A stretch of DNA of 39,010 nt from Candidatus Hodarchaeota archaeon (GTDB lineage Archaea > Asgardarchaeota > Heimdallarchaeia > Hodarchaeales > Hodarchaeaceae): positions 1 through 39,010 of the forward strand of contig JAEOTC010000092.1 in the NCBI GenBank assembly GCA_016840035.1. Direction: 5' to 3'. Position numbers and translations under genes: made by a program. Below are positions 3,411 through 19,505 of this stretch, piece by piece. Each line of letters begins with the position of its first letter. The first letter of the stretch is position 1. Under the pieces are notes generated by a model. The model was given only the letters and a program-made list of their open reading frames with translations, was not told the origin of the DNA and made no database searches.

Positions 3411-3833
3411 ATGTCTGTTCAAGATTACAATCCCTGGATGGGTCAAGAGCTAAAAAAACTGATTGATCTCGTAGTAAATAAAGCTTTTAAAACAAATCCT
3501 GAAGCCATTAATTCCCAAATAGCAGAAATACGTCGTGGACTAGAATATGGACTCAATAATCCTGGTGCAATTGACGATTTAGTAATGAAAGTAGCCCGAA
3601 ATTTTGTTGATTCCTTCCAAGTGTACATGAGACAGGCAAAAAGACCAAATACAGGTATTCCTCCAGGTGGTCAGGCAACCGTTCTTACAGGAGGGACTTT
3701 TGAAGAAACTCCAGAAGCAGAACCCGATCAATTCAGTGTAGACGAATTGAAGGGAGCTCTCGCATCCCGTAAAAAGCAGAAGGTTGAGAAGAAAATGAAA
3801 GGGTCTATGGATCTCCTCAAAGACTATGAATGA
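3411..3833 (+). CDS. Hypothetical soluble protein (helical N-domain, Pro/Gly/acidic linker, basic C-terminal helix)
   Basis: 140-aa ORF, ATG start preceded by AGGTTGGA; 3' end overlaps the convergent kinase gene by 10 nt. Confidence 0.7.
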   Translation: MSVQDYNPWMGQELKKLIDLVVNKAFKTNPEAINSQIAEIRRGLEYGLNNPGAIDDLVMKVARNFVDSFQVYMRQAKRPNTGIPPGGQATVLTGGTFEETPEAEPDQFSVDELKGALASRKKQKVEKKMKGSMDLLKDYE

Positions 3834-4354
3834 TTGGATATCTTCGTTACTATCTCATCAAGTCTGCTGTTAAGTTCATCGATTGAACCATTATTTTCTA
3901 AATGATAATCTACCGCTAGCTCCATGACTTGGTTTTCTGTCAAATGCTGAGACCATTTTTGCCAATCCGCATCGGAAATCTTTTCGGTGCCTCGTTTTTC
4001 AATTCTACGTCTACGGATATCAGAATCGGTACCAATCCGTATAAATATGAACCCCAGTGGACGTAAGAATTCAATTTCATTTTGTCTTCGGATATCATCA
4101 ATTACGATTGCAGAATCACTTGATTGAACTTTGTTGAAAATATAACGGACCCAGACGTCATCATCAAATTCTCTCATAAATTTCCCAATTCCCTGAAGGA
4201 AGTCTCTTGTTGGTTCAATTTCTAACTCCTTTGCAATATCGCGCATTTTTCCAGATAATCGTAACTTCTTACAATGATATTTTTCACATAAAAAATCTGC
4301 AGCTAGACTCTTTCCTGAACCCATATTCCCTGTAATTCCAATTAATAACCGCAT
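3824..4354 (-). CDS. P-loop kinase of the NMP-kinase fold (dephospho-CoA kinase/UPF0200/dNMP kinase-like)
   Basis: N-terminal Walker A IGITGNMGSGKS; IVIDDIRRQNE; LID arginines IRRRRIEKRG; C-terminal DYHLENNGS. Confidence 0.8.
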   Translation of the reverse strand: MRLLIGITGNMGSGKSLAADFLCEKYHCKKLRLSGKMRDIAKELEIEPTRDFLQGIGKFMREFDDDVWVRYIFNKVQSSDSAIVIDDIRRQNEIEFLRPLGFIFIRIGTDSDIRRRRIEKRGTEKISDADWQKWSQHLTENQVMELAVDYHLENNGSIDELNSRLDEIVTKISNHS

Positions 4355-4474: not shown

Positions 4475-6430
4475 TTATTGATCATTTTCCTCGTCTAAAT
4501 AATCTTCACTTGACTCCTGAGGTGCAACTGGTGTAATCTCTTCAGTTTCAGAAGACACGATCTCTTCTATTGGAGTCTCTGAATCATCAACTATTGACTC
4601 TTTTGGTGTATCAACACTTGAGGGAAGATCATAATCCTCTGTTGGGGTTTCTGAATCATCAACTATTGACTCTTCTGGTGTATCGACACTTGAGGGAAGA
4701 TCATCATCCTCTGTTGGAGTAAATGTGGTTGTTGATGTCTCTCTCGTTTTAATTGCTTTATAGATAATATACATTATTCCAAAGAAAAATCCTGCATAAA
4801 ACGCGATGGATTCCACATTTTCAAACGTACCTACAGCGGAGGATAAGATTGTCGTTAATCCAGTAATTGTTCGAAGGGGAGCGTCTGGTATTGCTAATTC
4901 ATAGATATCTCCAAGAATATTAGTGATAATCAGGACAAATGAGGTTGATATAAGTAGAAAGAACATTTCCCCTCTATCCTTGAATCGTGGGGTTACTAGA
5001 GTAACAGAGAGAAACTTGAAGGCACCAGAAAATATGAAAATGATAGGAAGGATTAAAAATGGTAAAAATTCTAATGTAGGCCAAATATCAGCTAAAAATC
5101 CTGAAATAGGCAATACTACTTCGTTATAAAAGAGATAGAAGAAGTTTGGAACCGTTAAATCAATATCGAAATGCAATTGATTTTTTAACATTTCAACGAT
5201 CTCTCCAAAACTATCCCATAAGAGGGATACCCACACACCGAACATAACAAGATATTTAGAAAATACCATTACTCTGGGGGGAGACCTGGCGAGTACCTGT
5301 CCACTTCGAGCTACTTCAATTCCTCTCGACAAAGCTGTAAATATTGCAATGAATGCAAATCCTTCAGCAAAACCTACCACCAATGTGGCAGCGATTGTAA
5401 TTATGATGAAATCTAGTTGAACAAGATCCTCAAAATCCACAATTCGCGTAATAAATGAATCTAGATAGGTGTTAATAATTTCAGCGATATCTATCGCTTC
5501 ACCAGTAAGTAGTTGAATTGTATCCCATCCTGCCCATAGTAATGTTGGGAGGATCCACAAAGTAGCAATGAGGGGAATAATTACAAGTAAATTTACACTA
5601 GTAATAAAGGCAGTTATTTTTACTCCTCTCCACACAATTAAGAAGATTGTTTTTAATACTTGATAGATCCACCAAACCACTGCAAGAAGATACACAATCA
5701 GAACTATTTGCCCAATTGATGTGCTTTGAAGTTGTGCAACAAAAAATGATAGAAAAGGGATAATAATCCATGCGAACAACTTATAAATTGTTCTAACTCC
5801 TTCTTTTTCTTTCTCTTCTATTTCTTCCTCCTTTTTGAATTTTCCAACAACTCTACGCCGTGCAAATGTTGTTAAAATGATAAGAAAGACAATAATAGAG
5901 AAGGCAATAATTAGGAGAAAAAAGGTACCAAAATATAGATTACGCGCTGTTTCATAGAATTTCCTACCCTCAACATCAGAAAGTCCCTCAATCTCGAGAT
6001 CGAAATAATCCAGAATTCCACGCATAAATATTACTGGTAAAAGTTGCAAATATGTTTCTTGTAGGAATACATCTAGGAGAAGATAGATTGCGGAACAAAA
6101 TGACAAAGCAAGCACAGCGAACAACCAAAAACGGGTGTTATAAACCATTTTTCCTGAATCATCTCTTAGCCCAAACTCATTAGCCATGTCAAAAAGGACA
6201 ATTTTCGAAAACCCGAATAAAACAAGGAAAAAACACAAAGATGATAAAATAATGGCAATGACATATTCTGTATTACCATAAGTAACTGTAGACAGATCCT
6301 CAATACTAGCAGAAATAACCATGACAATTATCAGCAAGATTGTAATGACTAAGATCCCGATAATCTTAATCATCTGCTTAGCGAGATACTCTCTCCATGG
6401 AATTCTAGTGACTTTCTCTTTAATTGACAA
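4475..6430 (-). CDS. Polytopic membrane protein of unknown function with acidic low-complexity C-terminal tail
   Basis: 651-aa ORF, TTG start with GAGGA upstream; roughly a dozen hydrophobic segments; D/E/S/T/P-rich tail. Confidence 0.75.
   Translation of the reverse strand: MSIKEKVTRIPWREYLAKQMIKIIGILVITILLIIVMVISASIEDLSTVTYGNTEYVIAIILSSLCFFLVLFGFSKIVLFDMANEFGLRDDSGKMVYNTRFWLFAVLALSFCSAIYLLLDVFLQETYLQLLPVIFMRGILDYFDLEIEGLSDVEGRKFYETARNLYFGTFFLLIIAFSIIVFLIILTTFARRRVVGKFKKEEEIEEKEKEGVRTIYKLFAWIIIPFLSFFVAQLQSTSIGQIVLIVYLLAVVWWIYQVLKTIFLIVWRGVKITAFITSVNLLVIIPLIATLWILPTLLWAGWDTIQLLTGEAIDIAEIINTYLDSFITRIVDFEDLVQLDFIIITIAATLVVGFAEGFAFIAIFTALSRGIEVARSGQVLARSPPRVMVFSKYLVMFGVWVSLLWDSFGEIVEMLKNQLHFDIDLTVPNFFYLFYNEVVLPISGFLADIWPTLEFLPFLILPIIFIFSGAFKFLSVTLVTPRFKDRGEMFFLLISTSFVLIITNILGDIYELAIPDAPLRTITGLTTILSSAVGTFENVESIAFYAGFFFGIMYIIYKAIKTRETSTTTFTPTEDDDLPSSVDTPEESIVDDSETPTEDYDLPSSVDTPKESIVDDSETPIEEIVSSETEEITPVAPQESSEDYLDEENDQ
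4570..4720. repeat. 72-bp in-frame tandem duplication (2 copies; 24-aa unit PTEDxDLPSSVDTPxESIVDDSET)
   Basis: CTGAATCATCAACTATTGACTC starts at 4579 and again at 4651; copies differ at only a few positions. Confidence 0.9.
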
Positions 6431-6557
6431 TATTCCTCAATCCTTAACAATAATGATAAGAACTCTCGTAAGATTTTATTAGATTAACCTTTTATGTCTT
6501 GCTTCCAATTACAAGTTAAACATTGTTGTATCGAGAAACAGTGGAGTCGGGTATTTC

Positions 6558-7106
6558 ATGGATTATACGGAGAAAGCTAAATACCACATGAAAGTGATAG
6601 TATGTGGTACAGGGGCAGTCGGAAAAACTAGTCTTGTTCGCAGATTTGTTGAAAATAAATTCGATTTTAACTATTTACTCACCATCGGAATGGAACCCTC
6701 AAATCGTAAATTACAGGTGAATGGTTTTTTAGTAAATTTAATTATTTTTGATGTTGCAGGACAGGAACGTTTTCAAACTTTGAGAGAAGTTTTCTTCCGG
6801 AAAGCGAATGGAGCATTACTTGTATTCGATTTAACTCGGCCTGATTCTCTTGAAGAGTTATACGAATGGAAGGCCCAAATTGATGAACGGTTAGGAAAGA
6901 ATAAGATCCCTCTTGTTTTGATTGGAAATAAAGCTGATCTCGAGGATATGATCCAAATCGATTATCAAGTCTTAGAAGACACTGTTATTCCTGATTTTCA
7001 GCCTGTGAAATATTTAGAAACCTCAGCCTATCAGAATCATAATGTACATGAGGCATTTTCAATAATTTCTAATGAGGTACTGAAACGGCAAGGGATTATA
7101 AAATAA
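6558..7106 (+). CDS. Rab-like small GTPase (Ras superfamily)
   Basis: G1 GTGAVGKT, G2 LTIG, G3 DVAGQERF, G4 NKAD, G5 ETSA; no C-terminal Cys prenylation motif. Confidence 0.93.
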   Translation: MDYTEKAKYHMKVIVCGTGAVGKTSLVRRFVENKFDFNYLLTIGMEPSNRKLQVNGFLVNLIIFDVAGQERFQTLREVFFRKANGALLVFDLTRPDSLEELYEWKAQIDERLGKNKIPLVLIGNKADLEDMIQIDYQVLEDTVIPDFQPVKYLETSAYQNHNVHEAFSIISNEVLKRQGIIK

Positions 7107-7142
7107 CTGTAGTTTAAGAGGAAAAAAGAAAACCAAGGTCCA

Positions 7143-7913
7143 CTAAATTGGTTTCCATCCAATCTTATTAGATCCTTCATCTCTTAAAACTCTTATATTT
7201 TGAATAGGATCCTGTACAAATGCTTTGGATAGTTTATTGAGATCATCTGGATAATAGGGAGGATTCCATTTAATTCCAATCTCTGATTGATAAATTTCTA
7301 AGGGGACACCAATATCAATTACATAGAAGTCTCCTAGATATTTTTGATCCAGAAGAAGTAAACCAGTTTTTACAAAAGCTATTGTCATTGTCGCTAAGGG
7401 GTGAAATTTACTAAAATTTTCACCTGTTGTGATATCTATTCCTGAAGGACAATCCAATGAGATAACAGGATCATTACTTTGAAAGAATGAAAATACCTGT
7501 TCAGTTAGCTGGTCTTCCCGATACTCAAAGTTATATCCCAGATAACAATCTAAGATAATCGTGTTTTCACTACTTTTTGCAGGAATGCCTTCTTTTATTT
7601 CCACACCCACCATTTTAGCTCTTATCAATTGATCCTTAAGTGTTTTATTTGCAATTTCCTCCCCTTTAGGAAGAAAGATAGAGGTTTTACAGCCCCACGC
7701 AGCCAATCTCCTTGCTGCCACCATACCTCCCCCACCATTGCCTCCCGAACCACACACAATCAAATACGAAGTATTCAGATTTCCCATAAGAAAAGCCAAA
7801 CGTGCAAGATTAGCTCCTGCATTTTCCATCATTATTGACAAAGAAATACCTCGTTGTTCCATCAACCGATCTACTTGAATCATTTGTTCACGGGTTATTC
7901 CTGGCAGAACCAA
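7143..7913 (-). CDS. nnrE: NAD(P)H-hydrate epimerase (stand-alone YjeF N-terminal domain)
   Basis: MIQVDR...MMENAG, VCGSGGNGGGGMVAARRL, ILDCYLGY, VISLDCPSG, ATMTIAFVKTGL, DIGVP motifs of YjeF_N. Confidence 0.9.
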   Translation of the reverse strand: MVLPGITREQMIQVDRLMEQRGISLSIMMENAGANLARLAFLMGNLNTSYLIVCGSGGNGGGGMVAARRLAAWGCKTSIFLPKGEEIANKTLKDQLIRAKMVGVEIKEGIPAKSSENTIILDCYLGYNFEYREDQLTEQVFSFFQSNDPVISLDCPSGIDITTGENFSKFHPLATMTIAFVKTGLLLLDQKYLGDFYVIDIGVPLEIYQSEIGIKWNPPYYPDDLNKLSKAFVQDPIQNIRVLRDEGSNKIGWKPI

Positions 7914-7976
7914 CTAGATCACCACGTTTCTAGACATCGTAAAAGGGAAGGGAACAACAATCTCCAGTAAACTGAA

Positions 7977-9074
7977 TTATTCCACCCCAAAGCTCTCGTA
8001 CACCAACCGTTTACCTCCTTTAGCAAAAGTATCGGTATTAATATACGACATGGATGCAAGAGATTCTGCAAATTCACGTATGAATCCTGTTGTGAAGCGT
8101 TTTAATGCCCCTCGTAGGAAAAATGTTGTTTGGGGTGTAAGAATCAAGGAAAGAACCTGATTTTTCCGTTCAAGAACTAATTGATTTCCCTCAAGGTTCA
8201 CCTCCGAGATGTCAGCTGTTGACTTAGTAGCCTCTTGCATAAGTGAGGTAATTGCTACAATACCACCTGCAAACAATGCTTCATCAAGAGACTCATCATC
8301 GGCTTTAAAGTCATATGAAAAGAGAGGAACACCAGTTTCATGAATTACTAAGATACGATCGGCTTGATGACGATTAAAGACTGCAAAATTATCACGACTC
8401 CCAAAAGAAATGAAATATAGAATAAAACCAATTGCTACATCTGCACGCAAGAGAATTGTAAACACCATGGAATTTAATGATATAGCAATAGGTTTGAACA
8501 TAAAGGGAACCATATATGCAATAATAATTCCTATGATCATATACTTCAACTGCTTCTTCTGAATTGCCCATGCATCATTGTAACCCTTCCATAAGCTTAA
8601 AATTATGAGTAAACTACCCATCCCAGGTAAGAAAAAGGTTAGAAAATCTGTTAATGGATCAAATGATACGATAAACATATCTAACATAGGATGGTAGGTT
8701 GTTACGAATTCTCCCAACAGAATCGCTACCATTGTCCCACCTAAAAACAATGTATGTACCATTTGTTTCCAAGTAAAGATGGTATCATATTCAAACGCCT
8801 CAAAGAAGTATAATAGGAAACAAACAGACAACATAGAACTTATTATAGACAATTTAGATATTAGAACTAAGAATGATTTATCAGAAATAAACATTGCGAT
8901 TAAACCTGAGCCATCCGCAAATAGTAAGGCAATCAATGCCATTAAAAATAGAGTTAATGTTTTGGCATTATATTTTATCCACCGTTTGGACAGACTAAGG
9001 ACGATTATAATTTCAGCCGACACACATAAAACAGCAATCGTCAATGTTATTATTAAATCAGGTGTAAGGATCAT
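7977..9074 (-). CDS. Seven-TM membrane protein fused to a C-terminal longin-like domain
   Basis: Seven hydrophobic helices in the first ~225 aa; the C-terminal ~125 aa follow a beta-beta-alpha-beta-beta-beta-alpha pattern (RILVIHETGVPLFSYDF / DEALFAGGIVAITSLMQE / ISEVNLEGNQLVLERKNQVLSLILT / LRGALKRFTTGF). Confidence 0.72.
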   Translation of the reverse strand: MILTPDLIITLTIAVLCVSAEIIIVLSLSKRWIKYNAKTLTLFLMALIALLFADGSGLIAMFISDKSFLVLISKLSIISSMLSVCFLLYFFEAFEYDTIFTWKQMVHTLFLGGTMVAILLGEFVTTYHPMLDMFIVSFDPLTDFLTFFLPGMGSLLIILSLWKGYNDAWAIQKKQLKYMIIGIIIAYMVPFMFKPIAISLNSMVFTILLRADVAIGFILYFISFGSRDNFAVFNRHQADRILVIHETGVPLFSYDFKADDESLDEALFAGGIVAITSLMQEATKSTADISEVNLEGNQLVLERKNQVLSLILTPQTTFFLRGALKRFTTGFIREFAESLASMSYINTDTFAKGGKRLVYESFGVE

Positions 9075-9240
9075 TTGGAATCCTCGCTAATCTCTAGATT
9101 TCTCCCTTTATATTTCTCTCTTGAATTTAGATAAGAAAATTTGTCTTACTATCCGTTTTTAGTAAATTTATCAATCGAATCAAAAGAAATTTTGAACTAA
9201 TATTTGAAAACACCATAGGAATGAGCATTTACTAGACTCT

Positions 9241-10116
9241 TCAACCCAGATCCTTGTCAAAATGAAATTCCTTTAAATTTTGGCTATTAATTAAGTTCGG
9301 AGGAATAGAAATCAGTTGATTATTCCTGATATCAAGATACCATAGTTTTTTCAAGGATTGAACACTTTCAGGAAGAAATGAAATCTGATTATTTTGCAAA
9401 TAGAGGATTTCAAGATCCTTCATATTCCCAATAGATTCCAATACAGTAAAAAGGGAATTATTGTTCAAATTCAAGCGAATAAGATTGGGTAATCCAGATT
9501 CCCACTGAGGAAACCTCTCTAGTTGGTTGTAACTCATATCTAATTTTTCAAGCTTCTCTAAAGCTCTAAATTGGGTTGGTAAAGAATGTATTTGATTTTC
9601 TCTCAAATCTAAGACTTCAAGGTTCTTTAGGTATCCAATATTTGGGGGGAGTGATTTGATTTTATTAAATCGTAGAAACAACCGCTTTAAATAATAAAGA
9701 CTGCAAATTTCAGGCGGTAAAGAGGTTAAATCTTCATCGGATAAATTTAAGCTAATAATATGTCCCCCTTCAACCTCAACACAAGTTTCAAAGAATTTAT
9801 TACGGTTTTCGTTATCCATTTTCGAAACTAACCGTATTAATATGCTTAACTCCTTTTCATCTAGAGTGGGAAATTTTTTGGTAATATAGTCAGAATTAGA
9901 GAATGGATCATTAACAACGTGAGTTTTCCTTGATCCTCTCGTAATAGGTTTTCCTCTCAGAAATAACAAGGGTAAAGCTATTAATAAATTGAGTATTCTT
10001 ATCAATGTTAACTGAATTATGGGTTTTCTCCATAGAATGATTCCAAGACCCAAACAGAATACTATGAATAAGTAGAGAATATACACATCATTTGCAAAGA
10101 GTGTTTGTTCAATCAA
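9241..10116 (-). CDS. Membrane-anchored leucine-rich repeat protein (7 x 23-aa LRR)
   Basis: N-terminal hydrophobic segments, cap CVEVEGGHIISLNLS, then LxLxxNxLxxLPxxIxxLxxL repeats; TTG start. Confidence 0.9.
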   Translation of the reverse strand: MIEQTLFANDVYILYLFIVFCLGLGIILWRKPIIQLTLIRILNLLIALPLLFLRGKPITRGSRKTHVVNDPFSNSDYITKKFPTLDEKELSILIRLVSKMDNENRNKFFETCVEVEGGHIISLNLSDEDLTSLPPEICSLYYLKRLFLRFNKIKSLPPNIGYLKNLEVLDLRENQIHSLPTQFRALEKLEKLDMSYNQLERFPQWESGLPNLIRLNLNNNSLFTVLESIGNMKDLEILYLQNNQISFLPESVQSLKKLWYLDIRNNQLISIPPNLINSQNLKEFHFDKDLG

Positions 10117-10142
10117 TTACATTATCCATCCTTTTATTTACT

Positions 10143-11297
10143 TCAATCCTCATAAGTAAATTCCTTTAAGTTTGGGAGAGAAGTAATTGATTTTGATAAG
10201 GAAATTATCTGATTACCCCTAATATCTAAGTATTGGAGCTTTGTTAAATTCTCTATACTCTCAGGAAGAAATGATAAATTGTTTTGACTCAAATCAAGAA
10301 CGATGAGATTCTTTAATAAACCAATTGAATTTAAAATTGTTGTCAATCGATTTTTACTTAGATCTAGATTCGTAAGAGAGGGCATTTCTTGTGTCCATGA
10401 AGGAAAAGATTCTAACTTATTGGCACTCAGATCTAGATTTTTTAAGTTGGAGAGGGTTCCAAGTGACTGATTGATAGATTCCAATTGATTTTCACCAAGG
10501 TCAAGTCGTTCAAGATCCTTTAAATACTGGATTTTTGATGGGAGAGTTGTAATTCTATTTGACCGTAGATTAAGTACTTTTAAAAAGCGAAAATCGGACA
10601 AATCACTAGGAAAAGACGTTAATTTCTTTTCAGAAAGATCTAGAATAACAATTCTTCCCTGCTCAGTTTCTACACACTCTTTACAGAAAGATTCATATTC
10701 TTTCATATTTAATTGAGTAACAAGTCGGGCTAACATTTCTCCCTCTTCAGTGGTTAACGAGGGAATAATTTTTCTAATGGTTTTAGATTTAATAACACCT
10801 TTACCTTCAATCGTTTTGTAACGGAATCCTTCTTGATATAATTCATCTTTTGAGAGAAATTTCGACTCGAATGCTAAAAACATAACTACTTTATATGCTG
10901 GATATGTTATAATTATTAGAAGTGACAAGAGAATATAAATAATAATGACAAATGGACCATCTTTTTTTAAATCATCTTTGAACTCCTGCGTTGTGAAAAT
11001 TGGCGCCCAAAAAGATGTGAATATTTCTTTATGGAAATAAGGTTTAAACATACAAAAAAAGTACAACACCCATCCTATTGTTCCAACTATTAGTCCAATG
11101 ATGATAATTACTGGAGTTCCTTCAAGAAATAGTTGGAGAATTCCCCCCCCAGCGATCATTCCAAAAAATAAAAAGACTAAGAGTATTAGATAGACTATGA
11201 ATATAATATAGGATATTAATCCAAGAAATTCAAGAGAAGTATACTTAGTATAATTCACCTTTTGATTCCTAACAATCATAACTTCGGATACTGACAT
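10143..11297 (-). CDS. Membrane-anchored leucine-rich repeat protein (about 3 TM + 7 x 23-aa LRR); paralog of the downstream gene
   Basis: Three hydrophobic segments, cap CVETEQGRIVILDLS, seven LRRs; GGAGG SD-like motif upstream of ATG. Confidence 0.9.
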   Translation of the reverse strand: MSVSEVMIVRNQKVNYTKYTSLEFLGLISYIIFIVYLILLVFLFFGMIAGGGILQLFLEGTPVIIIIGLIVGTIGWVLYFFCMFKPYFHKEIFTSFWAPIFTTQEFKDDLKKDGPFVIIIYILLSLLIIITYPAYKVVMFLAFESKFLSKDELYQEGFRYKTIEGKGVIKSKTIRKIIPSLTTEEGEMLARLVTQLNMKEYESFCKECVETEQGRIVILDLSEKKLTSFPSDLSDFRFLKVLNLRSNRITTLPSKIQYLKDLERLDLGENQLESINQSLGTLSNLKNLDLSANKLESFPSWTQEMPSLTNLDLSKNRLTTILNSIGLLKNLIVLDLSQNNLSFLPESIENLTKLQYLDIRGNQIISLSKSITSLPNLKEFTYED

Positions 11298-11337: not shown

Positions 11338-12960
11338 TTAACTTCCTGTACTACCGACGATCCAATTTCTGTGGCCACAATAGGGACAATCAGGAATATC
11401 TTTCTGTTCAACCTGTCTTAATTCCTCAAACTCAATTTCATGAACTCCTCTTAAACAACGAGAACAGAATTTTGATTCATGAATTCTAATCTTGGTACCA
11501 GAGAGCATAGAATAAGCACTAATCACTCCTCTAAGCATGGAGCTTTGGGACTTGTGAAGGACTTGTGATGCTTTTTCTGTTTGAGTAACCAGCACTCCAA
11601 GCGAAAAGAAAAAGCCCATGATTATTAGAAGCTCAATATTGATGAAATTATTGGACTGATCGATTTCCATTAAGTAGATGTATCCAAAAGCTGCAAATAA
11701 TCCTAAAAAGTGTAAATTTTTCCATAAGGTTTTACTTAATCTTTCAATTGACCCAAGAAGGCCGAAAACGGTTGTATGAAAAAATTTTCCTAAGCTTTTA
11801 CGAGCAATTCTGAGAAAATCACGGAATCGGGACCTGAAGTTACGAATTCCACTACCAATCGACCTAAAGAATCCTATAACTAAATTTTTCCCAAATCCGA
11901 GTAATGTCTTTAAAGCTTCACGGTACTGGTAATTTCTAGCATACTCAATGAACATAATACCAAGATCTATGAGTTTTGTATCATAATCTGTCCATCTTAA
12001 GGATACACCGATGATCACGAGAACTATTCCGACTCCATCAATCAGAACTGTTGTGAATAAATCAATTTGCTCAAGAAATACATAAACTAGCAATGGCCCG
12101 AAGATTAGAACTACTCCTATGTAAGAGATTATTGCACCCAGAGCACTCCAATCTGAGTATTGTCTCCATCGTAAAACATCCAAGATGAACCCAAATAAGA
12201 GAAATAAAAATGCTAAGACAATTAACCCGATAGCAGCTCTTTCTGCTGCAATTTTAAGTACAATAGAAACAAGTACTAAAATGAAGAAACCTAGACCAAT
12301 TAACGTCAGTCGGGAAAATGATATAATATCCGACCATTCTAGATGCATCTCTCTAATAGATCTTCGTGATGTCTTTTCAAATTGTAACTCTGCTGGTTCT
12401 TGTATTTGGGGTTTAGGAACAGAAAGACTATAAGTTTTCGCAATTAATGGTGTTTTCTCTTGGATTACTCCACTGGGTTTAGATTTAGATTCAATTGGAT
12501 GGGATGGAACTGAGGAACCACAATTGTTACAAAATTTCATTGAACTTGAGGCAAGTTTGTTACCACAATTATTACAATGCGATTCTGCAATACCTTTGCT
12601 CTCAATTCTTCCGATTTCCTTTTCTTCAAATGGTGGTTGCATCCCCCTCGATTCTGCGATTTTATCATGTAATGTTATCGTTTGTTCCGGCTTTTCCTGT
12701 TCTTCAACTTTTGCTTTCGACGTTATTTCAGAAGAATACTCTAAATCTCTGTCGCCTATCTCTTCCCCTGTTTTCTTCTCTAAGAAATTTTTGTATCTCT
12801 CCAAAATTGCAGCAAATACTGCGTCTGTGATTTCAGATTTCTCATATTGATCTTTTTGTCGAATAAACCAAGTTTGCCACTCATTCACTTCTTTATCTGT
12901 CTTAGCTAGCTCGGATCCGATATTTATGAGAGCTTCTTGTAATTTTTGGCTCTTTTTCAT
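11338..12960 (-). CDS. Membrane protein with N-terminal helical/SHOCT-like segment, internal zinc ribbon, ~6 TM, amphipathic helices and C-terminal zinc ribbon
   Basis: CNNCG...CNNCG and CSRC...CPYCG Cys pairs; hydrophobic block from ~aa 215; start overlaps the upstream stop (TAATG at 12958-12962). Confidence 0.8.
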   Translation of the reverse strand: MKKSQKLQEALINIGSELAKTDKEVNEWQTWFIRQKDQYEKSEITDAVFAAILERYKNFLEKKTGEEIGDRDLEYSSEITSKAKVEEQEKPEQTITLHDKIAESRGMQPPFEEKEIGRIESKGIAESHCNNCGNKLASSSMKFCNNCGSSVPSHPIESKSKPSGVIQEKTPLIAKTYSLSVPKPQIQEPAELQFEKTSRRSIREMHLEWSDIISFSRLTLIGLGFFILVLVSIVLKIAAERAAIGLIVLAFLFLLFGFILDVLRWRQYSDWSALGAIISYIGVVLIFGPLLVYVFLEQIDLFTTVLIDGVGIVLVIIGVSLRWTDYDTKLIDLGIMFIEYARNYQYREALKTLLGFGKNLVIGFFRSIGSGIRNFRSRFRDFLRIARKSLGKFFHTTVFGLLGSIERLSKTLWKNLHFLGLFAAFGYIYLMEIDQSNNFINIELLIIMGFFFSLGVLVTQTEKASQVLHKSQSSMLRGVISAYSMLSGTKIRIHESKFCSRCLRGVHEIEFEELRQVEQKDIPDCPYCGHRNWIVGSTGS

Positions 12961-15900
12961 TATTTACCACCTTTCTGAATTCTATCTCCTTCCTCAGTTG
13001 ATGAATCACCGAATCTTTTCTGTAGGTTTGATATTTTTAATGAATCGCGGGAGAAGTATGTAATGAAAGGAATAACTACTCCTACAATTATAAAAATGAG
13101 GCCTAAAAGTAAAAGGACAATTACTGGATCATTAGCGAAAATACCAATTAGATTCTCAACCTCTCGGACAGGAATCCCTTGAAGAATTGATGCAAATAAC
13201 CATAAAATGTCCCCTATCAGCGGAATTGGGTAGATAACAGTCTTTGTCCATGCCCCCTTATCATCAAGAAGGCCTGAAACCACTAGAATGACTCCATACC
13301 CAAAAGCTGTAACTCCTAGGGTTACAATAGCAATGTAAATTATTGAATCAAGAATTGCTCCAAATAAATTTAATAATTGCTCTGCAATTCGAGAACTAAA
13401 TGATATTATCGCCCCAATGGCTTTAAGAATTGCTTGAATGGTCAAATCTACCATCTTTCGAATTTCTTCACTCCAAGCTGCTATAAGGAAGATACTTCCA
13501 AATATGAGACAGGGAAGATAGATCCAAATTTCACCATTACTTAGGAGTACAGCTAGACCGATCAGTTCTAGAATAACACCGGTGATCGTTACGGCCATTT
13601 TACGGATGGTATATCGTAAACTCCAAATATAATGGAAATAATTTATTATTCCCTCTTTTATAGCTCCCACAACTTCCCTGATGAAATTCCCAAATGAAAT
13701 GAATGTGCTTCCAATTGCTTTAACTGTTTGGTTGATAAAACTATGCACTTGGGGGTACCATACCAAGTAGAGAAGTAAAAATCCAAGAATTAAGAAGAAA
13801 TTCAGACCTAGGATGACTATTGGGTTAACAGAATAAACAGAGGTTACTATAAGTATAATTCCAGTGACGGTCATAACTGCTCTAAATATAGCTTCTCGAA
13901 TTTTCCAAACATAGACGAAGAAATCGTAAATTGCTCGCTTAATGGCACTCCCAGTATCCCAAAGAAATCTAAGAAATGAAATAAAGGCATCTCTTATTGC
14001 CAAGATGGTCTGGATTATTAACTGATTGATTTCTTTTCTCCAAGCTGCATAAATCAATCCTATTCCTAATAGGGAAAGCAAAACCTGTCCAGCTAGTCCA
14101 AGAGTGGGAGTGAATATTCCATAAAAGATTGAAATCGGTCCTGCAATAGACATCCCCGCGCGTAGGATGGATAATCGATACAACCACAAATACTTTCCAA
14201 AAGCAATCACACTGGCTTTGATCGAATTTCCGATATCAATAAAGAAGCGAACGAATGCTTTCAATCCATCTATAATGGTGGAAACAAGTTTTACAACGAA
14301 ATCATTGATCGGAGTTCTCCAGGGAATGTAAAAGATAACTATTCCAGCGCCAAAGAAACCTCCACGGAGAATTATATCTAAGGAGGGATAAAATAATCCA
14401 AAAAATATGAAAACAGGCCCTGCAATTGTCATTCCAGCCCGTAAAATCGCGATTCGGATTAACCAGAGATAATGTCCAAAAGCGATAACATTGTCTTTGA
14501 TTGCTTTTCCGAGATCCTGTAGGTAACGAAGGAACGATTTCAGCTCCTTGTTAATAGAGGAAGCAAGGCTCACAAAGAAAGCATTAATTGGGATTCTCCA
14601 GGCAAGATAAAAGATGATAATTCCGCACCCGAATACAAGAGGTTGAATCCAAGGTCCTAATGAAGGAGAAATTACCGCAAATGTTGAGGCTAGAATTCCT
14701 ACAACTGTCATAATTCCCCTGACTATATTTTCACGAATTGACCAGATATAGCTAAGGGTATCAACAAAAGCTTGTTTTATCGCTCTTCCTGTATTCCATA
14801 TAAAATGTCCAAATTGAATAAAACTATTATTGATCAGAGATATCCAAGCAAGGTAAATCAATCCAATTCCAAAAATGATTAGGAAATAGCGAAATTCTAG
14901 CTCTAGAAAACTTGAAATTGATGATAATGAAAAAATAATAAGACTCCAACCTGAAAGTGTTAGAATCCCTCTAGCAATCGCAATACGAATGCTCCACAAA
15001 TATCTAACCATAGAAATAAATGATTGAATTGTACTATTCACAAAATTATTTATTTCCTTGAAGAATACACGATAGACAACTAATAATCCTACCCCTGCAT
15101 GAAGTGTCCGAAAAGCCACATTCATATCATTTAATGAATGTAATGCTGTTTCAGGATAGAAAATGCCAAGTAGAACTAGTACAACACCTAATAGAAATCC
15201 CAGTAAGAAAATTCGACGCAGTAATTGGTCACTAAATCTCTGATAATCAGTGGGGACTCTGAAAAGATACAGATCCAAGTAAAGAATTGTAAGAGAAAGA
15301 GTTCCAAAAAGAATTGAAACAAATAAGACTTCTAGACTATAATCATGACCTTGTATCAGGAGGGAGTCGAGAGCAGAAAGCATCATATAGAGTAGTAAAA
15401 ACTCGCAGAAGATTAATTCAAAGGTTCTAATAATATGGGCTTTATTATCCCAGAGTAATGTTGAAATTTCTTTGTACCAAGTAACCAAAAGTAGAGCGGA
15501 ACCAATTCCCACAGCCCAGAATCCGTTTATACCACGAGGCCAGTAAAATATTACCAACACACCAAGATTTACGAAAAAAAACCCTAATCCTGTTACAGAA
15601 TATTTGATTATTTTCCAAAAATTAAATCTCACAATATATATCAGTATTTGATCTAGTTGCGTTACCTCTAAGAAAAAGCCCAATGTAGTTAAAAGAAGAC
15701 CGATTAATAACAGAGAGTTTAGAATGGAAGAGAAATTTATTATTATAGGAAAGACTTCCTCTAATACTAGATCACAACTACAGGGTACTGCAGTGAGGAA
15801 TAACCCTGAGAATCCAATCAAACCTCCAATATTAGTCAGTTTGTTTCTTTTAACATTTATATAACGTAATTGTAAGAATCCTATAACTAAACCTAATAAA

Positions 15901-16100
15901 AATATTCCTAAAAGGATTAAAATGACTCCAAGTGTTAGCTCATCATATATCTCTAGTAAAGTGTTCTCGAGTATTTTTAAAACAAAAAGCAAAAGGATAC
16001 CGATGGAAGCTACTCGAACCAATATCCTAATTTGCGATTCCCAATCTCTCACGTCAGGTGGAGAAAATTCATCAACGGAGCTAGATTTAGATTTAATCAT
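12960..16100 (-). CDS. Large polytopic membrane protein built from ~93-aa TM-hairpin + amphipathic-helix repeats
   Basis: 1046-aa ORF; recurring Y[LIV]WxxRxxIxRxxxTxxG...Yx[AP]WxxxIN units. Confidence 0.8.
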   Translation of the reverse strand: MIKSKSSSVDEFSPPDVRDWESQIRILVRVASIGILLLFVLKILENTLLEIYDELTLGVILILLGIFLLGLVIGFLQLRYINVKRNKLTNIGGLIGFSGLFLTAVPCSCDLVLEEVFPIIINFSSILNSLLLIGLLLTTLGFFLEVTQLDQILIYIVRFNFWKIIKYSVTGLGFFFVNLGVLVIFYWPRGINGFWAVGIGSALLLVTWYKEISTLLWDNKAHIIRTFELIFCEFLLLYMMLSALDSLLIQGHDYSLEVLFVSILFGTLSLTILYLDLYLFRVPTDYQRFSDQLLRRIFLLGFLLGVVLVLLGIFYPETALHSLNDMNVAFRTLHAGVGLLVVYRVFFKEINNFVNSTIQSFISMVRYLWSIRIAIARGILTLSGWSLIIFSLSSISSFLELEFRYFLIIFGIGLIYLAWISLINNSFIQFGHFIWNTGRAIKQAFVDTLSYIWSIRENIVRGIMTVVGILASTFAVISPSLGPWIQPLVFGCGIIIFYLAWRIPINAFFVSLASSINKELKSFLRYLQDLGKAIKDNVIAFGHYLWLIRIAILRAGMTIAGPVFIFFGLFYPSLDIILRGGFFGAGIVIFYIPWRTPINDFVVKLVSTIIDGLKAFVRFFIDIGNSIKASVIAFGKYLWLYRLSILRAGMSIAGPISIFYGIFTPTLGLAGQVLLSLLGIGLIYAAWRKEINQLIIQTILAIRDAFISFLRFLWDTGSAIKRAIYDFFVYVWKIREAIFRAVMTVTGIILIVTSVYSVNPIVILGLNFFLILGFLLLYLVWYPQVHSFINQTVKAIGSTFISFGNFIREVVGAIKEGIINYFHYIWSLRYTIRKMAVTITGVILELIGLAVLLSNGEIWIYLPCLIFGSIFLIAAWSEEIRKMVDLTIQAILKAIGAIISFSSRIAEQLLNLFGAILDSIIYIAIVTLGVTAFGYGVILVVSGLLDDKGAWTKTVIYPIPLIGDILWLFASILQGIPVREVENLIGIFANDPVIVLLLLGLIFIIVGVVIPFITYFSRDSLKISNLQKRFGDSSTEEGDRIQKGGK
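13350..15002 (-). repeat. Six protein-level tandem repeats (spacings 84, 93, 93, 93, 94 aa)
   Basis: Unit starts YLWSIR (aa 367), YIWSIR (451), YLWLIR (544), YLWLYR (637), YVWKIR (730), YIWSLR (824); diverged at DNA level. Confidence 0.85.
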
Positions 16101-16362
16101 CTTGTGATTCGACTCCCTTAATCAATTTTTGTCTATTTACAAAATCGCTGAACTTCTTAGCAAGATAGAATTCAGGAATAATGCCAATAATGGAAAATAT
16201 GATTAAAATTGAAACATCCTCAACATTATATTCATCAATTCCATGAGAATTATTCGTTTCACTACTCACATAAGGTGTATTACTCAAAATAATTACACAG
16301 ATGCCAATAATAATTATAAGACGTTTTTTCAGACCTAAATGAGCTCCATTGTATTGCTTCAT
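16093..16362 (-). CDS. Small membrane protein (signal-peptide-like N-terminus plus one C-terminal TM); first gene of the membrane operon
   Basis: KKRLIIIIGICVIILSNTPYVSS, acidic spacer, VSILIIFSIIGIIPEFYL; stop overlaps the next start by 8 nt; GGTGA upstream of ATG. Confidence 0.65.
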   Translation of the reverse strand: MKQYNGAHLGLKKRLIIIIGICVIILSNTPYVSSETNNSHGIDEYNVEDVSILIIFSIIGIIPEFYLAKKFSDFVNRQKLIKGVESQDD

Positions 16363-16562: not shown

Positions 16563-16856
16563 ATGAACGATTCTGTCAATATACATCTATATGGACCAGT
16601 GAAATTTCAATTTAGCCCTAAAGCAAAATTATCAGAAGAAACGATCATAGAAATACCTTTTGTGTTCAATGAAACGGTTGAACATCTATTACAACGATTA
16701 AATTTATCAGATTCGGATTATGGGGAGTGCTTCATTAACCATTCCATTGTAAAAAATGTTTCTGATCTTATTCCTAGAAATGCTAGAGTAGCAATATTTT
16801 CCCATGGAATGCTCTTAATTGATGGTGGTCTTTACATCAAAAAATGGAAGCATTAA
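16563..16856 (+). CDS. MoaD/ThiS-fold (beta-grasp) protein with internal GG and C-terminal extension
   Basis: VNIHLYG...ETVEHLLQRLNL...CFINH...ARVAIF matches the MoaD pattern; ends SHGMLLIDGG-LYIKKWKH. Confidence 0.75.
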   Translation: MNDSVNIHLYGPVKFQFSPKAKLSEETIIEIPFVFNETVEHLLQRLNLSDSDYGECFINHSIVKNVSDLIPRNARVAIFSHGMLLIDGGLYIKKWKH

Positions 16857-16890
16857 TCAAAGGACGCGAAAAATAGAGGATTGAATTATC

Positions 16891-17232
16891 ATGATTGATG
16901 TCCATATCTATGGATTAATAAAAAAGAAGTTCGATCCAAATGCCTCCCTTGGGGACAATATGATTATTAAGTTAAACCATCATGATGGTTTACTCCTTCA
17001 AGACGTGTTCAAGGAACTTGATCTCTCCCAGGAGGATTGTGGTGATTGTTTCGTTAATGGGAAGGTAATTAAGCGAGATGAAAACCCCGAAATCAAGGAT
17101 AATTCTCGCGTAGCCATTTTTTCAGAAGGAATGTATCTTCTGTGTGGGGGGCAGCACTTGAAAGGACATGGATTCATTACTCGTTCTGCTCCTAAAGATT
17201 ACGACTACTTTCACTTGTCATCAGGTGAGTAA
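16891..17232 (+). CDS. MoaD/ThiS-fold protein with internal CGG and long His/aromatic-rich extension; paralog of the previous gene
   Basis: IDVHIYG...LQDVFKELDL...CFVNGK...IKDNSRVAIF; ends SEGMYLLCGG-QHLKGHGFITRSAPKDYDYFHLSSGE. Confidence 0.78.
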   Translation: MIDVHIYGLIKKKFDPNASLGDNMIIKLNHHDGLLLQDVFKELDLSQEDCGDCFVNGKVIKRDENPEIKDNSRVAIFSEGMYLLCGGQHLKGHGFITRSAPKDYDYFHLSSGE

Positions 17233-17481
17233 TTGACCAATATTAAAGTAAAACTATTTGCTACTTTAAGAGATCGGGGACCAGAGGGAATAGCTATTGG
17301 TGAGTCATTTTCTTTGACATTAGAACCAGAAACAAATTTTCATCAGTTATTGCAACAATTAAAAATTACTAGGGATGAAGCGAAGATCATTATGAGAAAT
17401 CATATTACCATCAAATCCCTAGATGAACTCTTGCAGGAAAATGACGAAATTGCAATATTTCCTCCCATAGGAGGAGGTTGA
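17233..17481 (+). CDS. moaD: Canonical MoaD/SAMP-type sulfur carrier protein
   Basis: IKVKLFATLR...LQENDEIAIFPPIGGG-stop; TTG start directly after the previous stop with AGGTGA SD; adjacent to AOR. Confidence 0.88.
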   Translation: MTNIKVKLFATLRDRGPEGIAIGESFSLTLEPETNFHQLLQQLKITRDEAKIIMRNHITIKSLDELLQENDEIAIFPPIGGG

Positions 17482-17607
17482 TTTAGACTTAATTCGAATA
17501 TCACTATAATTCCATGTTTCATTTTATCGATACTCTCCTGAATATGATTTAATTTGTACAAGTTCCATATAGACTCCATATTGTAACTCTTTTTTCCTCC
17601 AAAGATC

Positions 17608-17619
17608 GAAAGGTTTAAA
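17608..17619 (+). promoter_or_regulatory. Probable BRE/TATA promoter of aor
   Basis: GAAAGG-TTTAAA (purine-rich BRE followed by TATA box) about 110 nt upstream of the likely ATG. Confidence 0.5.
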
Positions 17620-17726
17620 CTCCTCGACAGTTCTAACCTCGAACAACTTCCAAAGAGCCTCTTGAGGTAGAATTGGAAAACACTCATTTCAAGGTAATTT
17701 TCTAAAAATATCAATCGGTGGTAATA

Positions 17727-19505
17727 ATGCCTCAAATATTAAGAGTTAATATGTCGGATATGACGACAAAATTTGAAGAATTTCCTGAAAAATATAAAAA
17801 GCTCGGTGGCAGAGCATTAACCTCCACAATGGTTTTTGATGAAGTTCCCCCTACATGTGAACCCCTAGGTCCATTAAATAAAGTTATAATCGCTCCAGGG
17901 ATAGTAACAGGTACGAATGCACCTAGTTCGGGTCGCTTAAGCGTAGGTGGAAAATCTCCATTAACTGGAGGAATAAAAGAAGCTAATGCAGGTGGATTAA
18001 CTGCACAGAAAATAGCAAAGTTAGGCCTAAAAGCAGTAGTTCTAGAAGGGCAACCAAAATCGAAAGACAAGTGGTTTAATATTGTTATAAAGAAAGGTAC
18101 AGCAGAAATTGTTGATGCGAATGACTTTGCTGGTATGGGACTCTATGAACTTATAGGAAAAGTCTGGGAGAAATATCCAAGTAAGCCAGGTATTATTGGT
18201 TGTGGTATTGCAGGACAAAAATTAATGCGTTCCGCAGGCGTTTTCGGTAATAACGTGGAAAATAACGATCCTGGAAGATATGCAGGTCGTGGTGGTCTTG
18301 GTGCAGTAATTGGTTCCAAAAGAATCATTGCAATCATAACAGATGATACGGATGGTGAGCGTCCAGCTGCAGTAAATAAAGAATTGTACGATGAAGGGCG
18401 AAAGAAGCTCGTTGCAGCTCTCAATGAACATGCTGTTACTGGAGTGCTAGAAAAGGATGGGAAACCCTACGGAGGTCTCAAAAATTACGGCACCAATGTC
18501 CTTCAAAATATTATTAATGAAGCAGGAGCTTTACCAGCCAGAAACTGGCGTGAAGGTCGTTTTGACGGTGCAGCCAAGATATCTGGAGAAGCTACCCATG
18601 AGCTTGTAGATAAAGTGAAAGCTAAGTTCCCTGATAGTCCCGCTCAGTATGCACATGCATGTCATCCTGGTTGTATCATAAAATGCTCTAATGTTGTTCC
18701 CTACGAGGATACTGGAAAACTACAAGTCTCTCCTCTCGAATATGAAACTGCTTGGGCGCTTGGAACGAATTGTGGGATCGATAGTCACTTTCATGTGTCT
18801 GAACTCAATCGTGTTTGTAACGATCTAGGTCTAGATACTATAGAAGCTGGGAATACAATTGCCGTTGCTATGGAAGCAGGATTACTGAATTTTGGTGATG
18901 GACCAGCAGCTGTTAATTTTTTAAAGAAAGTCGGTTCTGATTCACCAATGGGGAATTTAATTGGTTTAGGGGCATTAGGATTGGGTCAGGCATTTGGGGT
19001 TACTCATGTTGCTCATTGTAAAGGTCAATCGCTCCCTGCTTATGATCCACGACCAATTAGAGGAATTGGAGTTACATACGCTACAGGACCACAAGGAGGA
19101 GACCACACTCAGGGTTACACTATCGCTCCTGAAATTCTTCAGGTCGGTGGAACTCCTGATAGAATGGATGTGAACAAAGCTGAATTATCCAGAGCTTTTC
19201 AAGCAACTACTGCATTCATTGACTCAACAGGCTACTGTTTATTTATTGCTTTTGCTATCCTCGATATAGCTTCTGGTTCCGAAGGTATGGTTCAATCTAT
19301 TCAAGGGTTTTTAGGCGATACGTCTATTGATGCAGTTGCATATGGAATGGATGTTCTCAAGAAGGAAAGAGAATTCAATAAGAAAGCTGGGTTTACTAAA
19401 GTCGACGATCGACTTCCAGAATTCTTCCAAACTGAACCCCTTCCCCCCCACAACGTGGTATTCGAAGTTTCTGATGAAGAATTAGATAAAGTCTTTGAAA
19501 ATTAA
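17727..19505 (+). CDS. aor: Tungsten-dependent aldehyde:ferredoxin oxidoreductase family protein
   Basis: KSPLTGGIKEANAGG, GRGGLGAVIGSK, [4Fe-4S] ligands CHPGCIIKC and distal GYCLF, EYET, DLGLDTI; ATG 17727 (GGTGG SD at 17717-17721) preferred over GTG 17718. Confidence 0.95.
   Translation: MPQILRVNMSDMTTKFEEFPEKYKKLGGRALTSTMVFDEVPPTCEPLGPLNKVIIAPGIVTGTNAPSSGRLSVGGKSPLTGGIKEANAGGLTAQKIAKLGLKAVVLEGQPKSKDKWFNIVIKKGTAEIVDANDFAGMGLYELIGKVWEKYPSKPGIIGCGIAGQKLMRSAGVFGNNVENNDPGRYAGRGGLGAVIGSKRIIAIITDDTDGERPAAVNKELYDEGRKKLVAALNEHAVTGVLEKDGKPYGGLKNYGTNVLQNIINEAGALPARNWREGRFDGAAKISGEATHELVDKVKAKFPDSPAQYAHACHPGCIIKCSNVVPYEDTGKLQVSPLEYETAWALGTNCGIDSHFHVSELNRVCNDLGLDTIEAGNTIAVAMEAGLLNFGDGPAAVNFLKKVGSDSPMGNLIGLGALGLGQAFGVTHVAHCKGQSLPAYDPRPIRGIGVTYATGPQGGDHTQGYTIAPEILQVGGTPDRMDVNKAELSRAFQATTAFIDSTGYCLFIAFAILDIASGSEGMVQSIQGFLGDTSIDAVAYGMDVLKKEREFNKKAGFTKVDDRLPEFFQTEPLPPHNVVFEVSDEELDKVFEN

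Follow-up and report, generated by a model that had tools for sequence, protein, structure and literature searches.

A polytopic membrane repeat protein built of hairpins and amphipathic helices in a three-gene module of a Hodarchaeota archaeon

The repeat protein REP and its units

The DNA analyzed here (the window) is a stretch of 39,010 nucleotides from Candidatus Hodarchaeota archaeon (assembly GCA_016840035.1; contig JAEOTC010000092.1, positions 1 to 39,010 of the forward strand). A repeat region at positions 13350 to 15002 was found to correspond to amino acids (aa) 367 to 917 of the product of a minus-strand open reading frame (ORF) at 12960 to 16100. This ORF encodes a polytopic membrane protein of 1046 aa (P0001), the repeat protein REP, which is present in one copy in its own genome. 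It is located between a gene for an 89-aa anchor protein (P0046; 16093 to 16362) and a gene for a 540-aa zinc-ribbon membrane protein (11338 to 12960), both on the minus strand, and these three genes make up a module whose order recurs at related loci.

The mean BLOSUM62 self-score of aa 345 to 876 peaked at 0.636 at an offset of 93 residues and was 0.118 at an offset of 186, whereas the maximum over offsets 20 to 299 in 500 shuffled sequences had a mean of −0.479 (standard deviation, 0.055) and never exceeded −0.176. These results clearly indicate that the 93-aa repeat described in the initial annotation is real. The two motifs that had been proposed as its anchors recur in register along the array: YxWxxR at aa 367, 451, 544, 637, 730, and 824 (spacings of 84, 93, 93, 93, and 94 residues), and YxxW at aa 416, 498, 591, 684, and 778. 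In the unit alignment, the REP units were 13 to 51% identical to the first unit. No DNA-level repeat was detected within the REP gene by Tandem Repeats Finder; therefore, the unit duplications are old in this genome.

Six clear copies with degenerate ones upstream had been reported. Six units are indeed present, but they are not equal, because four are full (93 to 95 aa) and two are shortened (75 and 82 aa), and degenerate copies were found on both sides of the array (aa ~172 to 344 and 877 to 975). All of the following features lie on the minus strand. Unit 1 (aa 345 to 419, 75 aa; 14844 to 15068) corresponds to the 93-aa unit minus one 18-residue helix module, and unit 2 (aa 420 to 501, 82 aa; 14598 to 14843) is 11 residues shorter than the full unit. 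Both were delimited by the unit alignment and scored 58 and 100 bits, respectively, against a hidden Markov model (HMM) of the unit. The full units, namely unit 3 (aa 502 to 594, 93 aa; 14319 to 14597), unit 4 (aa 595 to 687, 93 aa; 14040 to 14318), unit 5 (aa 688 to 781, 94 aa; 13758 to 14039), and unit 6 (aa 782 to 876, 95 aa; 13473 to 13757), were each defined by the motifs, the unit alignment, and the unit HMM. Units 3 to 5 are also covered by an AlphaFold three-unit model with a predicted local distance difference test (pLDDT) score of 86.

The array is flanked by two conserved domains. The N-terminal domain (aa 1 to 170; 15591 to 16100), which was defined by alignment and modeled with a pLDDT of ~80, contains four predicted membrane helices (20 to 46, 49 to 84, 91 to 116, and 118 to 147 in the full-length model) and a cytoplasmic motif, QLR[YW]IN..RNK.TN.GG, seen in the family alignment. 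It is followed by degenerate hairpin units (aa 171 to 344; 15069 to 15590) that are conserved with P0002, P0003, and other homologs, and each of them closes with an aromatic residue, a basic residue, and an I-N/S motif. At the other end, a degenerate last unit (aa 877 to 975) merges into the C-terminal domain; this whole region (aa 877 to 1046; 12963 to 13472) was delimited by alignment and has a pLDDT of 85 to 92. The C-terminal domain (aa 900 to 1046) consists of two membrane helices around a conserved segment of ~48 residues (GxWT..IP..G....A...QG), and then a basic tail. Positions Y36, G37, and G87 of its alignment are invariant. The ~48-residue segment is probably external, and would be the only sizeable external segment of REP.

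Unit anatomy and predicted structure

Unit anatomy and charge statistics were obtained from 103 non-redundant units of the family. An amphipathic segment (columns 4 to 52) is followed by R/K53 (conserved in 90%), a hydrophobic segment of ~16 residues (columns 54 to 69; T57 83%, G60 90%, and G67 66%), a polar turn (columns 70 to 78), a second hydrophobic segment of ~15 residues (columns 79 to 92; G85 99% and Y90 63%), and W93, which is conserved in 100%. The hairpin is thus flanked by R53 and W93, which are separated by 40 to 42 residues, and the distance from R53 to the turn is ~18 residues. The amphipathic part (columns 1 to 53) carries 6.35 K+R and 2.59 D+E per unit (net charge, +3.8). On the other hand, the turn carries 0.38 K+R and 1.09 D+E per unit, and 57% of its residues are polar, Gly, or Pro. 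Each hydrophobic helix has only ~0.05 charges per unit (~0.05 for K+R and ~0.05 for D+E). The initial annotation had described two hydrophobic segments joined by a short Pro-containing turn. The hairpin was borne out by the family alignment, but its turn, which ranges in length from 3 to 16 residues across the family, proved to be acidic and polar, with Pro only sometimes (at column 71 in 34% of the units).

According to the positive-inside rule, positively charged segments sit on the cytoplasmic side of the membrane. The long helices are therefore read as cytoplasmic from their positive charge. Furthermore, since the turn is acidic, polar, and variable in length, it is read as an external loop and the hairpins as membrane-crossing. 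These features suggest hairpins whose short helices span the membrane, rather than half-depth wedges.

The amphipathic helix comprises ~50 residues per unit, is cationic, and is made of 18-residue modules, each equivalent to five helical turns. The hydrophobic moment of the first half of the helix was 0.6 to 0.72, compared with 0.50 for the 99th percentile of shuffled 18-mers, and the Fourier peak of hydrophobicity over columns 4 to 52 (49 residues) was at 98 to 100 degrees. The amphipathic character noticed at the outset is thus well supported. The internal 18-residue echo also holds at the family level: the self-correlation of the column profile was 0.62 at offset 18, the highest value among offsets 3 to 29, with 0.40 at offset 11 and 0.37 at offset 7. 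About half (49%) of the helix positions are hydrophobic, a stripe of conserved Ala or small residues runs through columns 14, 18, 21, 32, and 36, and the aromatic residues F, Y, W, and H occur at columns 7, 25, 40, 43, and 45.

The distance from W93 to the next R53 takes discrete values across the family, namely 35 (n = 11), 46, 53 (n = 39), 57 (n = 15), 64, and 75 residues. The helix length thus changes in steps of 4, 7, 11, and 18 residues, which are equal to 1, 2, 3, and 5 helical turns. Insertions and deletions were thus accepted only where they left the hydrophobic face in phase with the flanking hairpins.

The three-unit AlphaFold model (aa 502 to 781), for which an alignment of 49 three-unit windows was used as the input, was entirely helical, with a pLDDT of 86.4 and a predicted template modeling (pTM) score of 0.36. 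It contained long helices of ~44 residues, first transmembrane (TM) helices of ~22 residues, and turns of 5 to 6 residues. The TM helices ran on into the long helices (e.g., 75 to 139), and no mid-helix break was predicted. The full-length model of REP had a pLDDT of 66 and a pTM of 0.35, with confident N-terminal (~80) and C-terminal (85 to 92) domains. A compact transporter-like bundle, which would have spoken against the initial annotation, was not seen: pTM was low in both models (itself weak evidence), no transporter fold or other fold relative was found in the PDB, each membrane helix bears ~0.05 charges, and the number of units varies from 3 to 9.

Searches for relatives of known fold or family were negative. 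Foldseek searches of the PDB with the three-unit and full-length models gave nothing at E ≤ 0.5. VIA-align returned generic helical hairpins or four-helix bundles alone for both models (Z ≤ 7.0 and ≤ 10.5, respectively), values below the tool's own meaningful level for helical proteins, and aa 212 to 352 matched a generic four-helix bundle and nothing more specific. The VIA-align lists contained no reticulon, REEP, caveolin, or Piezo chain, which does not exclude such relatives. In profile searches of PDB sequences with the unit, C-terminal domain, N-terminal domain, and partner alignments, nothing was found below E 0.027, and neither REP nor the 540-aa partner matched Pfam (even at E ≤ 10) or NCBIfam. 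The reticulon profile (PF02453) did not match REP or its parts at E ≤ 10; its six-frame search of the whole genome gave no match at E ≤ 0.001, a result that is weak alone, since control genomes were also empty. Likewise, the TB2/DP1/HVA22 profile (PF03134) had no match in REP or in the whole genome, and this result too is weak alone because control genomes were empty. Judged from sequence and model comparisons, REP represents a new protein family and architecture for which no sequence or fold relative was found.

The three-gene module and its distribution

The 89-aa anchor protein encoded upstream of REP has an N-terminal signal or TM segment, almost no ectodomain, and a conserved C-terminal anchor (...IIPEFYLAKKFSDFVNRQ...), and the stop of its gene overlaps the start of REP by 8 nt (ATGATTAA). 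A gene in the same position, with the same type of anchor, was found at eight other loci. The anchor pattern is D[FIV][ST], a hydrophobic helix, [IF]PE[FLV][YF], and a basic tail. At seven of these eight loci, the upstream gene encodes a protein of 228 to 975 aa with an N-terminal signal or TM segment, an ectodomain, and the same C-terminal anchor, and the ectodomain is either a parallel beta-helix/NosD domain, with or without an F5/8-type-C domain, or a C-type lectin. At the locus of the closest relative (L028; REP 51% identical), the upstream gene encodes a 58-aa anchor-only protein. Since the ectodomain is optional and the anchor constant, the anchor appears to be the conserved part, which suggests that the anchor itself is a subunit. 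Three further matches to an IPEFY-type anchor were found in the same genome, none of them a C-terminal anchor; this anchor therefore does not act as a general sorting signal in this genome. NCBIfam CTERM models did not match P0046 or two of its large homologs. The C-termini of the anchor proteins have a conserved E/K-G-V-E/S sequence (16080 to 16130 in the window; L013, L017, L023, L024, L025, and L026), which probably reflects an embedded GGAG/GGTG ribosome-binding motif for REP and would be a sign of translational coupling.

The N-terminal region of the zinc-ribbon partner encoded downstream of REP is cytoplasmic and includes a zinc ribbon; the protein continues with a membrane core (aa ~209 to 470) and an invariant C-terminal zinc ribbon, CxRC...CPxCG, and its family members carry further zinc ribbons at variable positions. 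The stop of REP overlaps the ATG of the partner by 1 nt (TAATG). A partner homolog lies directly behind REP with an overlap of 1 to 4 nt at L013, L016, L017, L018, L023, L024, L025, and L028, with a gap of 22 nt at L026, and also on the contig of P0002 (P0049). The partner family comprises 22 clusters, several of which are named Hodarchaeales by NCBI, and its range is as narrow as that of REP. A region of the partner at aa ~300 to 370 consists of its own TM hairpin and a subsequent basic amphipathic stretch (GFFRSIGSGIRNFRSRFRDF). An hhalign comparison of the partner core with the three-unit profile gave a probability of 32% (E 5e-4; 70 columns), which is not significant. These features suggest, at the level of sequence, that the partner and the REP unit share a design. 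On the other hand, hidden paralogy between REP and the partner was not established: the best BLASTP E value was 1.7, and hhalign of the partner core against the REP C-terminal domain gave a probability of 0.7%.

The order anchor gene-REP-partner, with overlaps of 1 to 8 nt at nearly every junction, was found in the window and at L013, L017, L023, L024, L026, and L028. The trio also occurs at L025, where REP is interrupted by an in-frame stop; in addition, the anchor gene is found upstream of REP at L014, and the overlap between REP and the partner at L016 and L018. The overlapping stops and starts in a fixed order imply co-translation of the three genes. A complex prediction with the REP N-terminal domain, REP aa 782 to 1046, and the partner core, with the 89-aa chain as the chain in question, gave a score of 0.00 and carries no weight either way. 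In the L025 homolog of REP (G107:C1, ~3455 to 3923), there is an in-frame TAA near the start, and the ORF resumes 470 nt past the stop of the anchor gene; this homolog may be a pseudogene or an assembly error.

An exhaustive HMMER search over 1.84 billion representative proteins yielded 44 clusters at E ≤ 0.001, with members of up to 1554 aa. The unit HMM detected 3 to 9 units in full-length relatives of 950 to 1550 aa, and all full-length members are composed of the N-terminal domain, a variable repeat region, and the C-terminal domain. Among 200 sampled genomes of the phylum, hits were confined to the genus of the window. When the class was searched with the C-terminal domain profile, the domain was present in 11 of the 21 other genomes of the genus and in neither of the two genomes of the sister family, and the remaining 59 class genomes gave two marginal matches (E ~5e-4) that were regarded as noise. 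The relevance to Asgard protrusions that had been suggested for the repeat is thus unlikely to be general, as the family was detected in a single genus and there in 11 of 21 genomes.

Some homologs show further kinds of repeat. A second repeat type of ~130 to 160 aa, with the motifs YYRE... and W[YR]xP.RH.YFRG[IV]TT.LS, occurs in many of them (P0002 aa 380 to 610, P0005, P0006, P0008, P0009, and P0019) and is absent from the REP of the window. Adjacent units are near-identical in P0006 (aa 720 to 921), P0009 (aa 827 to 1047), P0003 (aa 601 to 878), and P0031, which indicates recent tandem amplification in those homologs.

Two genes for TM proteins with leucine-rich repeats (LRR) are located behind the partner gene in the same orientation (9241 to 11297, minus strand), with a 40-nt gap that contains a GGAGG motif. 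One LRR gene occupies the same place at L028 (210 aa; 8581 to 9213), and at both of these loci the protein encoded upstream is small and has an ectodomain that is minimal or missing. Where the anchor protein has a beta-helix or lectin as its ectodomain, no LRR gene was found at the locus. It is possible from this gene arrangement that the LRR genes are associated with the module in this sub-lineage only, and a binding domain may be supplied either way, by an LRR gene or by the ectodomain.

Beyond these genes, positions 4475 to 9074 of the window are syntenic with L028 (9362 to 13897), and both contain genes for a 365-aa membrane protein, a YjeF_N protein (7143 to 7913 in the window), a GTPase, and a protein of ~630 to 650 aa. 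The GTPase is a Ras/Arf/Roc-like small GTPase at 6558 to 7106 on the opposite strand, and the contig of P0002 shares the GTPase gene and the gene for the large protein after it. The L013, L017, and L018 sub-lineage lacks this adjacency and has a winged helix-turn-helix regulator, a short-chain dehydrogenase/reductase, and a MacB-type ABC transporter on its flanks. On the other flank (16563 to 19505), the window encodes an aldehyde:ferredoxin oxidoreductase, and a protein of the same size (595 aa) is encoded at L023 (151 to 1938) and L024 (552 to 2339). This flank looks syntenic from the matching size and position, with no evident link to the module. A small gene of the ThiS fold lies on the same flank at L028 (2026 to 2298). 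The GC content is flat across the window (~0.33 to 0.41); therefore, there is no compositional sign of recent transfer.

A candidate membrane scaffold and its alternatives

The interpretation that we tentatively favor, with somewhat less than even confidence, is that REP is an extended, length-adjustable scaffold within the membrane and the central polytopic subunit of the three-gene module. In this scaffold, the Gly-rich hairpins would act as pickets in the bilayer with the short acidic turn exposed outside, and the cationic amphipathic helices, 50 to 110 Å in length, would lie in or on the cytoplasmic leaflet, presumably in the plane of the membrane. The five-turn modules would keep one hydrophobic face in register along each helix, the number of units would set the length of the scaffold, and the anchor protein and the zinc-ribbon partner would dock to the conserved domains at the two ends of REP. 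The likely effect would be to organize, stiffen, or bend the membrane patch under the complex. The number of units varies from 3 to 9, and the function therefore tolerates or scales with it, as in a scaffold and not in an enzyme or a transporter. A structural role fits better than catalysis or transport because of this tolerance, the charge-free membrane helices, the phase-preserving helix lengths, and the lack of a compact fold.

Several points weigh against this interpretation. The amphipathic helices had a pLDDT below 50 in the full-length model, and their hydrophobic positions and small-residue stripe would also be compatible with helices packed against each other in a cytoplasmic bundle. 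The physical association of the three proteins is deduced from gene order only. In addition, the patchy occurrence in 11 of 21 genomes of one genus shows that the module is dispensable and lineage-specific.

It is plausible by analogy that REP affects membrane shape. It is conceivable, if doubtful, that REP is a single-chain membrane-shaping belt of tunable length, made of cationic in-plane helices held in place by the Gly-rich hairpins, which together with its lectin or beta-helix and zinc-ribbon partners would impose curvature or stiffness on a delimited patch of membrane and would be an independent archaeal counterpart of the reticulon/REEP or Piezo-blade architecture.

The initial annotation had put forward a reticulon/REEP-like curvature generator, in which wedge hairpins in the cytoplasmic leaflet and in-plane helices would make one chain form a tubulating arc, with a role in Asgard protrusions and vesicles. 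Asymmetric insertion into one leaflet is an established means of membrane bending, and the relevant features of REEPs are described in PMC10162974. The design as such was confirmed, since a hairpin and an amphipathic helix are repeated in one chain and conserved throughout the family. The hydrophobic helices, of 16 and 15 residues, are short, with 40 to 42 residues between R53 and W93, and in this they resemble the hairpins described for reticulons and REEPs. A cationic, strongly amphipathic helix comes after every hairpin, and the AlphaFold models are not compact. However, REP has no profile homology to Reticulon or TB2/DP1/HVA22, and its acidic, polar turn of 3 to 16 residues speaks against a wedge and fits an exposed outer loop. 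Even for Yop1p and REEP1, the contribution of the wedge has been undermined and curved oligomeric scaffolding is favored (PMC10162974). Moreover, insertion into the cytoplasmic leaflet would be expected to bend the membrane towards the cytoplasm, opposite to outward protrusions, and the family occurs in about half the genomes of one genus. We therefore regard this curvature generator as unlikely.

Another explanation, which we consider rather unlikely, is that the long helices pack together as a cytoplasmic bundle or sheet, such as a cytoskeletal or adaptor platform, and that the hairpins are mere anchors. The small-residue stripe beside the hydrophobic face and the 49% of hydrophobic positions are consistent with this, and steps of 7, 11, and 18 residues are also typical of coiled-coil-like packing. 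The continuity of the TM helices with the long helices in the AlphaFold model (e.g., 75 to 139) points in the same direction, as do the best structural neighbors (soluble helical hairpins and bundles), although their Z values of 6 to 10 are not significant. Nevertheless, the Fourier peak at 98 to 100 degrees, and not at 103, favors a straight amphipathic helix, and the net charge of +3.8 per unit and the interfacial aromatic residues suit the interface with lipid headgroups. A helix of ~70 Å with both ends at the membrane must also run along the surface unless it is folded back.

The arrangement of REP also invites comparison with Piezo, whose blades are arms of tandem TM units with in-plane helices. 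A channel or mechanosensor of this kind would have a possibly oligomeric C-terminal core and the repeat array as an arm sensing tension or curvature, and the anchored protein would couple it to the outside. Tandem TM units with in-plane helices resemble the build of the blade, and the layout of a variable repeat arm and a constant C-terminal core would suit it; moreover, conservation is strongest in the C-terminal domain, which includes the one sizeable segment that is probably external and has invariant polar or small residues. We nevertheless consider such a channel improbable. No match in fold or sequence to Piezo or a channel was seen, which is inconclusive because the geometry between units is not confident; the membrane helices are almost free of charged and polar residues, and there is no sign of oligomerization. 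The weakest alternative is that REP serves in the biogenesis or sorting of the anchored surface protein, as an insertase or in retention or processing, and is not a structural scaffold: archaeosortases, which recognize known C-terminal sorting signals in archaea, are polytopic membrane enzymes, and REP is polytopic and strictly paired with the gene for a protein with a conserved C-terminal signal-like anchor, but this is very improbable, given that the anchor order of TM, PE[FLV]Y, and basic tail differs from PGF/PEF-CTERM and has no NCBIfam match, that REP has no conserved Cys, His, or Arg candidates (the "CSC" of the N-terminal domain is not conserved), that an enzyme would not be expected to vary in its number of repeats, and that the small proteins reduced to the anchor (89 and 58 aa) offer nothing for a sorting factor to act on.

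Several known systems share parts of the design of REP. Like REP, the REEP/Yop1 proteins (PF03134) and the reticulons (PF02453) have short hydrophobic hairpins with nearly charge-free membrane helices, followed by a cytoplasmic amphipathic helix. The amphipathic helix after the hairpins in REP, as in REEPs, is a shared design and not evidence of homology. Reticulons contain two hydrophobic hairpin segments of 30 to 35 residues that do not fully cross the membrane; the REP hairpin (40 to 42 residues) is similar in length but has an acidic polar turn. Furthermore, REP has six or more units per chain, whereas a REEP or reticulon subunit has one or two hairpins, and unlike these proteins REP has an amphipathic helix of 35 to 75 residues built from 18-mers, an acidic turn of variable length, and an operon with two partners. 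Both the Piezo blade and REP are long linear arrays of TM units joined by interfacial helices and followed by a conserved C-terminal module. However, REP units have two TM helices and Piezo units four, the Foldseek and VIA-align results for both REP models list no Piezo chain, and neither trimerization nor a pore is evident in REP. Mic10 of MICOS resembles REP in its TM hairpin with glycines in both helices (G60, G67, and G85 in REP) and its short turn, and in Mic10 such glycines are responsible for the packing of the helices and the bending of the membrane. Mic10 itself is small, has one hairpin, and oligomerizes, whereas the hairpins of REP are covalently joined by long amphipathic helices, and no homology is claimed. 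Apolipoproteins, perilipins, and synucleins also build long amphipathic helices from short phase-keeping modules (11/22-mers). In contrast to these, the REP module has 18 residues (3.6 per turn), and its helices are strongly cationic and tethered at both ends by TM hairpins. Finally, the anchor of the upstream protein resembles PGF-CTERM and PEF-CTERM in having a C-terminal Pro-Glu-aromatic motif, a hydrophobic helix, and a basic tail. In PGF/PEF-CTERM, the order is motif, helix, and basic cluster, whereas in the REP-linked anchor the helix comes first, followed by IPE[FLV]Y and the basic tail, and this anchor occurs once per genome, beside REP.

To our knowledge, a single-chain array of hairpins and amphipathic helices quantized in whole turns has no described counterpart, nor does the three-gene module. 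That REP is limited to about half of the genomes in a single genus speaks against a central part in cell biology related to eukaryogenesis. Regardless of its function, the change of helix length by whole turns only is an unusually clean structural rule, and the modular units of REP are attractive for reconstitution and design. Likewise, the three genes form an envelope module, also new, in which the surface protein has an exchangeable ectodomain (a beta-helix, a C-type lectin, or none). Should REP indeed shape or stiffen the membrane, no earlier integral-membrane curvature scaffold would be on record for Asgard archaea, and the combination of hairpin and amphipathic helix would have been invented independently.

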